From the NCBI GenBank assembly GCA_048127485.1, contig JBHNWI010000632.1, positions 35,183,400 through 35,205,737 on the forward strand: 22,338 bases of DNA, written 5' to 3'. The position numbers and the translations under genes were made by a program. The stretch is from Solemya velum. Its lineage: Eukaryota. The notes beneath the pieces are model-generated. The model worked only from the letters and a program-made list of their open reading frames with translations. It made no database searches and had not been told where the DNA came from. Positions 11,705 to 21,497 of the stretch are shown one piece after another (the first letter of the stretch is position 1; the number at the start of each line of letters is the position of its first letter).

Positions 11705-11758
11705 ATGAGTAGCGTTATTGGGATTGCGCCTTTCCAATTTGTACATATTTTCGACTCG
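11705..11758 (+). CDS. MVP: Major vault protein, first coding exon (MSSVIGIAPFQFVHIFDS)
   Basis: An ATG in a Kozak-like context (CAAAATGA) opens 18 codons, then a GTGAGG donor at 11759. The peptide aligns position by position with the human MVP N-terminus FIIRIPPYHYIHVLDQ (I/V-I-x-I-P/A-P-Y/F-x-Y/F-I/V-H-V/I-L/F-D). It ends in phase 0, which matches exon 2. Confidence 0.7.
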
Positions 11759-12507
11759 GTGAGGAAACATTATTGAACTTCGATCACTCTTAAGAAGTTA
11801 AATTATAGAAGTTAGTTATACACTCTAATGTAACATCAACTGAACACTAGGCTTAGTTAAGGAAGTAACTTCTACATGTAGTTCTATTGTTATCTGGAGT
11901 ATTACCAAAGCTGTTGTATATACATTATATATTGATTCTAAAAGACATTCTGGTAGTGAACTTTGCGCACCCATTTTCACATGTATTGGCATTTATATTT
12001 TAAAATATTTGCATCTAAAATAAAAGAATGTGTTATTCTCACAAGTTTGTTTTTTCCATTTTTAAAGTTGCATGTGTAATATTTGCAAATAATCATGGGT
12101 TGTCACTGGTCCAGTTCCTTCAATGTCGAACCTAGTTGGCTTACTGCCTAATACTGGTGTCCCTGGAATTTATACCACCCTGGAAATACGGTCAAAATAT
12201 CCCAGTCTCCCGGGTGCTCATATTTCACAGGTTTTACTGTACATGTATACATACACACAAGCCTAGGCATAAAATTTATCAACCCGGCAAATAAGATAGC
12301 GAGGGTCTATTATATATGATATAAGACTATAATAAGTTATTAGGTTATGTAAGATACAGAGCTCCATCTAAGCTTCTCCAAAAAGTAATTAAAATTATGT
12401 CGATGAATACTAAAATAAAATTGTAGATCTAAATGAACTGGATTATTAGAAACCCTGGGATTTGCAACCCAAGGGGGAAATTCGACTGTTTGCATGCTGC
12501 CATTTTT

Positions 12508-12525
12508 GTTGTTGTTGTTGTTGAC
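12508..12525. repeat. (GTT)6 microsatellite
   Basis: Seen directly. Confidence 0.8.
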
Positions 12526-12546
12526 ATATTTAAGTATCAAAACAAA

Positions 12547-12930
12547 TAGTCCTGAAGCTCATATGACTAGTTACCCTAAAGTCTTGGTTCTGTCATTGAT
12601 ATGAAAGTGAACTTTCAAACTTGTCGACAATGACTGTAAAATTTTTTTTTTCAAACTATGAATACGATAAACATCCATGCTATATTGCTTGGGTGTACAA
12701 ATCAATGTATCCCTCATTGGATACCTAACATCCATGATGTGTTAAAGAACATATAGTTGCCATTATAAGCTGTGGTACCGAAAAAATTCAATGTTGGCCT
12801 GGCCATCTTGAATAACAGCCCTATACTCTTTACCATAGGTGAGAACTGTCATCTCCCTTCAATCAAATATCCTATATCGGACCTATGCTCGAATCATGAC
12901 TAGGGTAACCAGTCATAAGCTTCAGGACTA
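12547..12930. mobile_element. hAT-type MITE (384 bp) with ~35-bp TIRs and a perfect 8-bp target-site duplication, in MVP intron 1
   Basis: Left TIR is TAGTCCTGAAGCTCATATGACTAGTTACCCTAAAGTC (12547-12583). Right TIR is GACTAGGGTAACCAGTCATAAGCTTCAGGACTA (12898-12930), ~33/37 matches as reverse complement. It is flanked by identical AAAACAAA at 12539-12546 and 12931-12938. Confidence 0.75.
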
Positions 12931-14377
12931 AAAACAAACATCCTGAATACTGGCACTTCTCTCACAACTGCAGATGCTAACTTCCTATAGGTACTGTAGG
13001 CATGTTCCTATACTTTTCTGCCAAAATAAAAAATTGAAATGCCAAAAATATATCACTGACTGTCATCGTGAGCAGTGTTACATATCCACAAAAAAATGAA
13101 CATTGACACATTGGCTTCAAGAAAGTGAAGAAAACTTGAGTTTTTTCTAAACTCATGATATACCAGTATGTATATTTCTGCAAATAAAACACATGGAGTC
13201 AACACGCAACAACAGTATCACGGACAGTACTGTGAAAATTAACATTTCTTCTCTCTCTTATTCTTGGTCTGTTGATATATATGCTAAAATACATCCACCG
13301 CAATGAAGATTTCTAAATTTTCACGGTGGGGAATGGTGAAGGCGGTTACTTGAGAAATTTTAATTGTAATTGACTGTTGATTTACACCAATAAATGTTGA
13401 AAATGTTCATAGGAATGCATGCAAACTCTTGGCTAGAAACTGAGAAACGCTGTAGATGGCATCCCAAGTAACCTGAATTTTCGAAATTTTTACAGGAGAT
13501 CATGCCCCAGGACCTCCCCCCCCTCCCCGAAGGCTTTGGTCACTTTGGGACCTTGCGATCAAATGCGCTACTGCCTATGATATGTGCCTACACATCTTTG
13601 TTGTGTTAGATATACCCCTGAACTTGGAAACAATATATTTTTATGGTATTGTCCATGTGATGAAAAGGGGAAGTATATTTAAACTATACCCAATTGAGTT
13701 TTTGATTGATTGATTTCTGCAAGGCAATCCACTATGGGTGATTTTTTGGATGCATTTTGCATAAGCATGCAAATTGGTTTTAAGGATATTGACTTTAAAT
13801 CAATTTGTGGAGTTGGCAGTGGGAAGCGAGGTGATGATCTGGACGAAAGTCTTATAGTATGGTGTTGTGCTTTGAATTTTGACTGAATTAAATTGAATAG
13901 TTTTTAATACCCTAATTTATTTGATGGATTTGATATCGAAATTGAAGTACGGTAGGTTTCAATTGGTTGGTCTTAATGTTGTACATGGGGCGTGTTGACC
14001 AGCCTTATATGTATTTTGTCCACTCTATTATGAAGTGGACCATTATGATAATGCAGTGACACCAACCAACCTACAACAATTTTATGCAAAGTATTAATTG
14101 ACCTAAACCTCTTGTAGCAATAGCAGCTTAACAGAGTTGGTGATCAAGAACTACGTCCTTAGCTGTTCATTATTTCATGGATGTAAAATAATGTAATTTG
14201 GGATTTGGAACGATCATCTTGGAAAATGTATACAGAAATGGACTTCCAGGCATAAAACTATAGATGTTAGGTTTTTTAATTAATATACATAACGATACAT
14301 GATCATCCATCTTATTTTCGCATGATAACTACATTTTATCATGTCAATTATTCTTCGAATGATTTTTTTTTCTCTAG

Positions 14378-14511
14378 AATACGAACATCACCCGCCTACT
14401 AAATGGGCCCAAGAGACTAGTACTTCAGAATCATGAGAAGTCAGTGATGGGCCCACTGCCCATGATCATCATCCCGCCCGGACATTACTGTATGATAAAG
14501 GACCCTATGAG
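14378..14511 (+). CDS. MVP: Major vault protein exon 2 (NTNITRLLNGPKRLVLQNHEKSVMGPLPMIIIPPGHYCMIKDPM)
   Basis: A polypyrimidine tract plus AG acceptor (TTTTTTTTTCTCTAG) and a GTGTGT donor bound the exon. It aligns with human MVP [44 protein letters not shown] and keeps the PPxHYC motif. It ends in phase 2. Confidence 0.85.
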
Positions 14512-15944
14512 GTGTGTTGTCAGTAGTTTTTTTTTTGAGCAATCATCTTCATAATTAAGCCAATCAAATCAAATAAGATTTCAAATGTCTATTCTAAAGG
14601 CAGTTGAACTGATTTTCCTGGCAACAATTGTTGATTTACTCTGATCAGAAGAATTTATAATACTATGTGTCAACTTGATCAGCTGATATAACTCTGCCAT
14701 TACTCGACAAACCAGGGTTAGTTGTCTTTTAATTCTGGATTGTGTCTTTTTTATTATTTGAATTAGTAATCATATTGATGTGCCACAAAACCCTCCCATG
14801 CAGGAAGGTTATTAACTCTATGTTACTAAACAATTCATGGTTTCTATTTAAAAAACCTGGGGAACCATGAAGCACAGGGGCCCAAATCGTTGGCTCCACT
14901 ATAATAGGCCTACTGATATCGACTATTTTTGGGTCTAGGGTAGCGAATTAGGTGTCAATTCAGAGGGTATTCATTATTCTACGACACAGGTATGTTATTT
15001 TCTGTTATTTCAACGCGTTTTATCGCCACACGTGATAAATCACAAGTTGTTGGAAATATCACGTATCGCGAGTTGGTCCCCTTGTATATCTTATGATATC
15101 AGTGTATATAGTTAAGCCAACGTGTCGGGCCCCTGTGCCATGAAGCAGATATTCAATTGCATTTGAAGCTTAATAAATATATTAAGATAATTGCTGTTAA
15201 ATTGTTTTAACAATATCGATGAAACATTGTTCTACACATCATTACACAATCCTAAACATTTATACTCCAAAATATTCAGAATGGTCCAATGTTGACTTGC
15301 AACAAAAGAAATCTTTGGTGAATGGCTGGAAATAAGAAATGCTGTGGAATGGATATTATCTTGAATGATACAACGACATTTGAACATGATTATCGAGTTA
15401 ATCTGGATTATTTCAACCATGATTTTTCACAGGATAACTTTTAACATCATATTAAATTTGTCACAAACAGAAAGGCTACTACATGAGACCAAACAAGACT
15501 TCCATTTTAATTCATTGAAATAGTTTCAGAAACTAGCACATCAGTTTGTTGACAGATTTACATGATTTTTTTCTTTTCAATCTTCATTGTTTTCATTTAC
15601 TGAAGCAAAACTTGGATTTACAATCTTCCTAAAGAAGAAATATTGTTCATGTCTCTTCCCTAACATCTCTGCTCTGAGTGAACATTCAGGCTTAATTTAC
15701 ATTCATCTAGTCATAGCATGTTCTGGAAAAAATCTGACATGAGATTCCTTGATTTCGTTGAACTTCTGATATTAAAGTGCATCATTGAGAAAACAGTTAT
15801 GACTACTATGAGATGAACAAGATATGTTACTATCATGGCTGGTTGACTAGTTTAATGTCCTGTATAGCAATTTTTCAGCTGTTAAGACATGTATGCAGTG
15901 TATGTGCGTGCGTATCATATGTGTCTGCTTGTCTTGAAGCTCTT

Positions 15945-20900: not shown

Positions 20901-20975
20901 ACGTCATTGCACGTGCGCTTAACGAGAACGTCATGAAAAAATGACGTTGGATAAAATGGCAATGCGATGACGTAC
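20901..20975. promoter_or_regulatory. Cluster of four ACGTCA/TGACGT (CRE-like half-site) motifs including the palindrome AACGTCATGAAAAAATGACGTT, in MVP intron 5
   Basis: ACGTCATTGCACGTG at 20901, AACGTCATG at 20928, ATGACGTTGG at 20941 and GATGACGTAC at 20966. The adjacent near-palindrome ATGTGATATATGTCACAT lies at 20876-20893. Confidence 0.25.
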
Positions 20976-21030
20976 ACACTCTACTTGGAGTACCTAAATG
21001 GCTTTTTTTGGATCACGGTATTAGAGAAAA

Positions 21031-21186
21031 GGAGTATTTCATATTTTGAAATGTGATATAGAACTATTCTACCTTCGGGGGCACACACTGTTGATAAAAC
21101 CCTCGGCAAGCCTCGGGTTTTATCCCAATTTGTGCCCCCTTTGGGTAGAATCGTTCTATATCACATACCAGCATATGAAATACTCC
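21031..21186. mobile_element. 156-bp foldback (palindromic) element with ~75-bp arms
   Basis: GGAGTATTTCATATTTTGAAATGTGATATAGAACTATTCTACCTTCGGGGGCACACACTGTTGATAAAACCCTCGG at 21031-21107 is ~85% the reverse complement of 21110-21186. Confidence 0.6.
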
Positions 21187-21256
21187 TATAATATTTTGAC
21201 AATCAGTATTAGACTATACAGTATACCTCATATTGCTATAATTGATCAATGATTTA

Positions 21257-21285
21257 ATCACGGGCAATCAATCAATCAACCAATC
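21257..21285. repeat. (CAAT)n-like simple repeat
   Basis: CAATCAATCAATCAACCAATCATC. Confidence 0.6.
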
Positions 21286-21430
21286 ATCTTTGTTATCTGT
21301 TCAAAGTGATCCGTGGAATAACTTGCAGTGATATCCACTGTTGCATATTTCATCTCTATAGACTACTGTTCTGGGGGAGTATTTGGCAATTGTGAAGGAC
21401 ACCTAATACTATGTTTTGCTTGTTGAGCAG

Positions 21431-21497
21431 GAAGCGTGTGACAGGAGAAGAATGGATGGTATGCCAGCCGGGGCCTACTTACGGCCGGTGTGAGGAG
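21431..21497 (+). CDS. MVP: Major vault protein exon 6 ((R)KRVTGEEWMVCQPGPTYGRCEE)
   Basis: Acceptor TTGCTTGTTGAGCAG and donor GAG|GTACGT bound the exon. The phase-1 start makes AG+G = Arg. It aligns with human [27 protein letters not shown]. Only this frame is open across the exon. Confidence 0.85.

Follow-up and report, generated by a model that had tools for sequence, protein, structure and literature searches.

Six coding exons of a probable major vault protein-like gene in the bivalve Solemya velum

Identity and exon structure of the locus

The window analysed here is a stretch of 22,338 nucleotides from the bivalve Solemya velum (assembly GCA_048127485.1, contig JBHNWI010000632.1, positions 35,183,400 to 35,205,737 of the forward strand). 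With a probability that we put at about 85%, it contains coding exons 1 to 6 (633 nt, 211 amino acids) of a 'major vault protein-like' (MVP-like) gene that continues downstream. The region would thus be the 5' end of the S. velum orthologue of an animal gene belonging to the second of two MVP lineages, called group B below. It is an unremarkable representative of a well-known family, in a genome for which an annotation exists, and nothing at the locus alters the current knowledge of vaults.

The shell of the vault, a hollow, barrel-shaped particle of about 13 MDa, is built from MVP as its only protein, in 78 copies with 39 chains in each half. The N-terminal repeats of MVP form the waist of the vault and the contacts between its halves, and the C-terminal cap-helix drives vault assembly. 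The exons in the window cover what we take to be about the first four of the nine N-terminal repeat domains, in the numbering of the rat vault structure.

An initial annotation, made from the letters of the sequence, had described an MVP gene with six spliced coding exons (11705-11758, 14378-14511, 16925-16988, 17625-17846, 18998-19080 and 21431-21497). Each of these segments is bounded by an AG acceptor that follows a pyrimidine tract (for exon 1, by an ATG instead) and by a GT donor. Joined, they give one open frame of 624 nt that yields the earlier peptide exactly, and the intron phases that had been given (0/2/0/0/2/0) are correct. Only one boundary had to be moved: the junction placed at 19080/21431 should be 19089/21431, the other five exons coinciding exactly with those of the GenBank model of S. 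velum (see below). In the corrected structure introns 1 to 5 measure 2619, 2413, 636, 1151 and 2341 nt and all ten splice sites are canonical. The exons are as follows (a slash marks the splice site).

11705..11758, + strand: coding exon 1, 54 nt, residues 1-18, MSSVIGIAPFQFVHIFDS; begins with ATG; donor TCG/gtgagg; phase 0
14378..14511, + strand: coding exon 2, 134 nt, residues 19-62 plus 2 nt; acceptor ttctctag/AAT; donor GAG/gtgtgt; phase 2
16925..16988, + strand: coding exon 3, 64 nt, residues 63-84, SQYEDGKSCELRMGQTDVRFHQ; contains the short loop typical of group B
17625..17846, + strand: coding exon 4, 222 nt, residues 85-158
18998..19089, + strand: coding exon 5 with the donor supported by homology, 92 nt, residues 159-188 plus 2 nt; CAG/gtatgg at 19089/19090
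21431..21497, + strand: coding exon 6, the last MVP exon in the window, 67 nt, residues 189-211, (R)KRVTGEEWMVCQPGPTYGRCEE; donor GAG/gtacgt; phase 0

The translated exons match the Pfam families Vault (PF01505; 74.9 bits against a cut-off of 27, E 4.9e-21, in two stretches) and Vault_2 (PF17794; 51.7 bits against a cut-off of 23.6, E 1.3e-13). When all chains of the PDB were searched with phmmer, the matches were major vault proteins only. The best of them (E 2.4e-44) was to rat MVP (4hl8_A, 4v60), colinear from residue 3 to 200 of the query and 6 to 202 of the rat protein, and weaker matches to later MVP repeats were obtained as expected of a repeat protein. Both the assignment to the 5' part of an MVP gene and the colinearity with the N-terminal repeats of vertebrate MVP that had been proposed are thereby borne out. 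The description of the segment as the 5' half of the gene was too generous, 211 residues being about 25% of an MVP of about 850 residues.

Among public proteins the search returned 'hypothetical protein ScPMuIL_013270 [Solemya velum]' (P0001, 220 amino acids, on a 144-Mb contig), which is 99% identical to the earlier peptide. By tblastn every exon is 100% identical to it, so that the window comes from the genome of this protobranch bivalve and the guess of a marine-invertebrate genome proved right. The deposited protein can be rebuilt base for base from 11705-11758, 14378-14511, 16925-16988, 17625-17846, 18998-19089 and 21431-21527. It is the product of the same gene, in a model that bears no functional name and makes no splice at 21497/21498.

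Exon 2 encodes NTNITR...IIPPGHYCMIKDPM, and its intron positions are the same in the orthologous locus of Mactra antiquata described below. Exon 4 carries PFPLYPGE, the insertion GAPDFGQSADYKAAI characteristic of group B, and W..EGP..Y.P. The methionine of exon 1 is encoded by the first ATG in an open frame at 11561-11773 and stands in register with the start methionine of the MVP-like proteins of Mercenaria and Sinanodonta. An acceptor-like site, tttttcagtttcag/GAGAGC (tttcag/GAGAGC, at about 11688 within 11670-11704), lies 16 nt 5' of the start codon, which suggests that the first coding exon may begin there, with a non-coding 5' exon farther upstream.

The donor of exon 5

Exon 5 ends in two in-phase donors that are 9 nt apart, CAG/GTGTGG at 19080/19081 and CAG/GTATGG at 19089/19090. 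They enclose the following segment.

19081..19089, + strand: nine bases between the tandem donors, GTGTGGCAG; coding for C-G-R according to GenBank and to homology, intronic in the earlier model

With the distal donor the product gains Cys-Gly-Arg and reads DRCGRKRVTGEEW, and no gap is needed to align it with any of the 18 MVPs that extend over this stretch (for comparison, DKTGRKRVTGEEW in Mercenaria and DREGNARVTGEEW in the group A protein of Mactra). The proximal donor would create a deletion of three residues, found in none of the 18. Because of this gap-free alignment 19089 is taken on homology grounds as the probable main donor, in agreement with the GenBank model. It is possible that both donors are used in vivo.

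Two lineages of MVP in animals

An exhaustive HMMER search yielded 716 relatives, of which the best full-length match was a 'major vault protein-like' protein of 856 amino acids from the sponge Corticium; a query with the C-terminal part of this protein then gave named proteins from many phyla. In the N-terminal alignment two insertions or deletions (indels) separate a vertebrate-type group A from an MVP-like group B. In group B the loop between DP[MCV] and the G(Q/E)..VRF strand is 7 amino acids shorter, and an insertion of about 10-14 amino acids stands between PGE and the LPV(I/V)KAN strand. Group A proteins (FRIPPY.YIHVLDQN...) have the longer loop and no insertion. Both indels are present in Solemya and in 15 group B sequences and absent from four group A sequences.

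Identity of the Solemya peptide is 46-58% with group B and 38-40% with group A. When it was aligned to 13 full-length MVP-like proteins (46-58% identity), no gap fell at an exon junction and the two indels were shared. A neighbour-joining analysis of 211 N-terminal columns recovered the split between group A on the one side and group B with Solemya on the other in 200 of 200 bootstraps. This places the Solemya gene in group B, as an MVP-like paralogue. Since the gene falls in group B, the two gaps in its alignment with rat MVP are lineage signatures and not splice errors. The comparison with vertebrate MVP made in the initial annotation identified the right family; it hid the status of the gene as the MVP-like paralogue.

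The likeness is closest to other bivalves. The MVP-like proteins of Mercenaria mercenaria (P0193, 851 amino acids), Sinanodonta woodiana (P0201), Ostrea edulis (P0184) and Tegillarca granosa (P0209) are 53-58% identical to the Solemya peptide over all 211 residues. The start methionine is the same in Mercenaria, Sinanodonta, Tegillarca and Solemya, and the bivalve proteins share with Solemya the loop shortened by 7 amino acids after DPM or DPC and an insertion of about 12 amino acids after PGE (GAxDF...DYxxAI). They differ from it in having GAYLP or GAYLT...EE where Solemya has GPTYGRCEE. Vertebrate-type MVPs (rat, PDB 4V60, 4HL8 and 2QZV; in group A for example Mactra P0266 and Lingula P0268) have the same family membership and domain order as the Solemya protein and share IPP.HY, PFPLYPGE, W..EGP..Y.P and RVTGEEW with it, but their loop is longer by 7 amino acids and they have no insertion.

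Group B contains proteins of sponges, cnidarians (Porites, Nematostella, Rhopilema, Hydractinia), bivalves, gastropods, a brachiopod, an annelid, echinoderms and hemichordates. To group A belong second copies from the sponges Oscarella and Dysidea, together with proteins of Lingula, Mya, Mactra, amphioxus and a millipede. As the group A clade also holds sponges, the two lineages therefore split before animals diversified. Both are present in several species, namely Oscarella, Dysidea, Lingula, Mya, Mactra and Physella (proteins P0013 and P0162-P0271), and one of the two goes by the name 'major vault protein-like' in databases. A protein of Strongylocentrotus purpuratus (P0241) resembles group B in the part of the signature region that it retains; its N-terminus is incomplete.

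The sea urchin MVP has been treated as the product of a single-copy gene, 64% identical to that of rat (PMC550661, 2005), and in work on vault evolution duplications were discussed only in protists (PMC3762200). No description of a two-lineage paralogy in animals was found in these two papers on vault evolution, the literature not having been fully surveyed. Two old lineages of MVP coexist in bivalves, as they do in many marine invertebrates, which is relevant to the use of 'MVP' as a single marker in mollusc proteomics and to studies of vault composition outside vertebrates.

Conservation of exon 4 in a related animal

A Logan contig of 1153 bp from a related animal (run SRR12008146) contains a version of exon 4 that is 74% identical in protein. 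At the DNA level it resembles the window (81%) only over 17619-17856, a span made up of exon 4 and a few bases around its two splice sites; the introns on either side cannot be aligned. The acceptor and the donor are in the same places, and the two indels in the exon are multiples of three. The Nei-Gojobori dN/dS for exon 4 against this contig is 0.14, and the locus is under purifying selection, at least in exon 4. A hidden intron had been considered as an explanation of the insertion of 10-12 amino acids after PGE in this exon and was rejected, the insertion being in frame in the contig and in all group B proteins. Because it is conserved in the contig, GAPDFGQSADYKAAI is regarded as coding.

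Continuation of the gene past the window

The GenBank protein ends in residues that are read from beyond the donor of exon 6.

21498..21527, + strand: intron 6 sequence read as the C-terminus of ScPMuIL_013270, VRMGWSVWC (nine codons) and a stop

This tail has no similarity to any MVP. The 220-residue protein is considered an annotation artefact in which the prediction runs through a good donor (GAG/GTACGT) into intron 6. The grounds for this are the full length of the relatives, the way in which the Mactra gene was split by annotation, and the fact that both short models end in an intron. The 13 closest named relatives that were retrieved whole measure 844-866 amino acids.

The Mactra antiquata orthologue lies at CM103820.1:105386-131644 (models ACF0H5_008612, which is P0002, and ACF0H5_008614) and was extracted with its 10-kb flanks as locus L001. 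All five intron positions are as in Solemya, and identity is 58% over 178 aligned residues; it is without most of the insertion after PGE that Solemya has. The homologue of exon 6 was located at 20793-20873 of L001 (RKRVTGEEWYVNQPGAYLPGVCEE/gta), 4.6 kb 3' of exon 5, and the donor that follows it is common to both species (CEE/gta, with GAGGAG or GAAGAG before the gta). The annotation of this locus gives an N-terminal model of 215 amino acids, followed on the same strand by a model of 658 amino acids with Vault, Vault_3, Vault_4 and MVP_shoulder (PF11978). The MVP-like gene of Mactra is one full-length gene split by annotation. All that separates the two models is an unrelated minus-strand model of 615 amino acids, without Pfam matches, which is annotated in intron 5 and overlaps the true exon 6.

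No exon 7 was detected in the last 841 bases of the window (21498-22338) by tblastn with residues 1-330 of 19 MVPs, and intron 6 would be longer than 841 nt. The remainder of the gene (further repeats, shoulder, cap-helix and cap-ring, about 640 amino acids) would lie past the window end; its counterparts are present in the downstream model of Mactra and in the 13 full-length group B relatives. That the gene continues there, as the initial annotation had stated, is most probable given relatives of about 850 amino acids and the remaining domains downstream on the same strand in Mactra. A search with the peptides of the downstream Mactra exons for a C-terminal model in Solemya gave one irrelevant match only. 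A 2026 data paper names S. velum as the one other solemyid whose genome has been published (PMC13066446). In the public annotations the S. velum gene has a truncated model without a name and the Mactra gene is divided between two proteins; both models could be repaired if a full-length MVP-like protein were used for spliced alignment.

The reading frame of exon 6 and the integrity of the gene

In the assembly, part of exon 6 departs from what is expected of an MVP.

21470..21493, + strand: out-of-frame segment of exon 6; GPTYGRC in the assembly frame, G-A-Y-L-R-P-V-stop (TGA) in the shifted frame

Solemya has QPGPTYGRCEE where others have (Q/K)PGAYLPxVxEE, and GAY[LV]P is found in all 18 other MVPs that were aligned, an anomaly that had escaped the initial annotation. 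At the nucleotide level CAGCCGGG-GCCTACTTAC of Solemya matches CAGCCAGGAGCATATTTAC of Mactra, and the differences GCC/GCA and TAC/TAT are synonymous in the shifted frame only. The last nine bases of the exon (TGTGAGGAG/gta, 21489-21497) match TGTGAAGAG/gta of Mactra in the assembly frame. The simplest reading of this pattern is a loss of 1 nt in the GGGG run at 21470-21473 with a net loss of 2 nt before TGTGAGGAG. The stretch outside the ancestral frame would then measure about six codons, and the product would have lost one residue.

Either a compensated frameshift occurred in the Solemya lineage, or two indel errors were made in a stretch of the assembly that is rich in CpG and CCGG. If GPTYGRC is an assembly artefact, the true sequence would be expected to read CCGGGNGCC...TTACCNGGNGTNTGTGAGGAG, with 36 nt from CAG to GAG against 33 in the assembly. 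Exact look-ups of the open reading frames of exons 4 and 6 in independent assemblies returned no match, and metagenome contigs of the Joint Genome Institute, scanned for exact DNA and for a protein pattern, yielded no relatives. The proposal that the frameshift is real and not an assembly error, in a gene of the ancient second animal lineage (group B), is put forward tentatively and is, in our judgement, rather doubtful. As the relic of GAYL is clear and the lineages are very old, the frame event must be recent. If the frameshift is real, the change from GAYLPxV to GPTYGR in S. velum is very recent and affects a strand that all 18 other aligned MVPs conserve, in both lineages and from sponges to lophotrochozoans. 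This would be either a tolerated remodelling of a vault repeat or a first step in losing the subunit.

Several points weigh against an MVP-like gene that is complete and continues downstream. The near-invariant G-A-Y-[LVI]-P that follows RVTGEEW is absent in the assembly frame (GPTYG) and kept in the shifted frame, and its loss could mean a damaged copy, although it is a single local motif and not a mark of the domains as such. The public gene model ends at 220 amino acids, and the continuation past the window is deduced from orthologues only. Among the 120 proteins listed of 1499 matches to the C-terminal 654 amino acids of the Corticium MVP-like protein, no C-terminal protein of Solemya was present. 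Finally, the splice junctions are predictions from sequence.

These points bear first on the idea that the locus is a decaying or truncated copy of an MVP-like gene, a pseudogene or gene fragment from which no full-length functional protein is made. In its favour, exon 6 leaves the ancestral frame for about six codons with the destruction of GAYLP, while the ancestral frame itself runs into the TGA. Annotation gave a model of 220 amino acids only, and no exon 7 follows within 841 nt, whereas the next model of Mactra starts about 520 nt after exon 6. Moreover, of 53 columns in the alignment with a conservation of 85% or more among the 18 other MVPs, ten have changed in Solemya, which retains 43. 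Three of the ten deviating positions are adjacent (residues 204-207). However, the shifted segment does not include the other seven, of which at least two (RKEEEMW) also occur in Haliotis. The six exons are all open and ten of ten splice sites are canonical; the frameshift is compensated, the frame being restored before the conserved CEE/gta donor; and the dN/dS of exon 4 does not fit with decay. Truncated models are common here, and the Mactra orthologue was split likewise though all its parts are present. Decay of the locus is thus considered unlikely.

A gene for a stand-alone protein of about 220 amino acids, made of N-terminal vault repeats only, is suggested by the fact that two independent bivalve annotations are short (220 amino acids in Solemya, 215 in Mactra) and hold Pfam Vault and Vault_2 only. 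Yet both models translate an intron past a conserved donor into tails that resemble nothing, and the last exon that they include is not the same, being exon 6 in Solemya and exon 5 in Mactra. The Mactra locus goes on, along the same strand, with the homologue of exon 6 and the 658-residue remainder of MVP, and the close relatives retrieved whole are all of full length. Such a short protein is very improbable. A chance assembly of short open segments, for which it can be said only that open segments bounded by AG...GT are in general easy to find where DNA is AT-rich, is already refuted by the matches to curated models and to solved structures at E 1e-13 to 1e-44, by the exact identity to a deposited protein and by the exon-limited conservation in the contig of a related animal.

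Surroundings of the exons

No second cellular gene was found in the window: a Pfam search of all stop-to-stop open reading frames of at least 60 amino acids outside the MVP exons gave retrotransposon domains only. These belong to a degraded long interspersed nuclear element on the minus strand (about 6011-8260), with RVT_1 (E 1.1e-30) at 7153-7953, frameshifted open reading frames at 6711-7223 and 6181-6648, and a weak zf-RVT match at 6011-6265. A search of the whole window against Rfam gave no match at gathering thresholds.

Exons 3-5 (378 nt) stand between two inverted copies of a repeat of about 500 bp (16336-16838 and 19116-19442, 89-90% complementary). The copy in intron 2 is 87 nt 5' of exon 3, and that in intron 5 is 27 nt past the exon 5 donor. 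Inverted intronic repeats favour back-splicing into circular RNA. Intron 3 contains a perfect-register tandem duplication of an 80-bp unit (17082-17241, 98% identical). In intron 6 a palindrome resembling a miniature inverted-repeat transposable element (21952-22121; inverted repeat of 68 nt, spacer of 34 nt, 85% complementary) is situated near a 21-bp microrepeat at 21839-21890.

Upstream of the gene a foldback-like element occupies 8394-10252. Its arms at 8508-8735 and 9908-10135 are 98% complementary, 8394-8474 also pairs with 10172-10252, and the arms enclose a 365-bp tandem repeat in 2.4 copies (9238-10088). At 3961-4062 there is an imperfect (TG)n microsatellite of about 50 units. The start of the window carries an inverted duplication (33-204 and 214-382, 92% over 173 nt), and an adjacent piece of 116 nt at 379-494 recurs with 78% identity at 4710-4818, probably as part of a dispersed family of short repeats.

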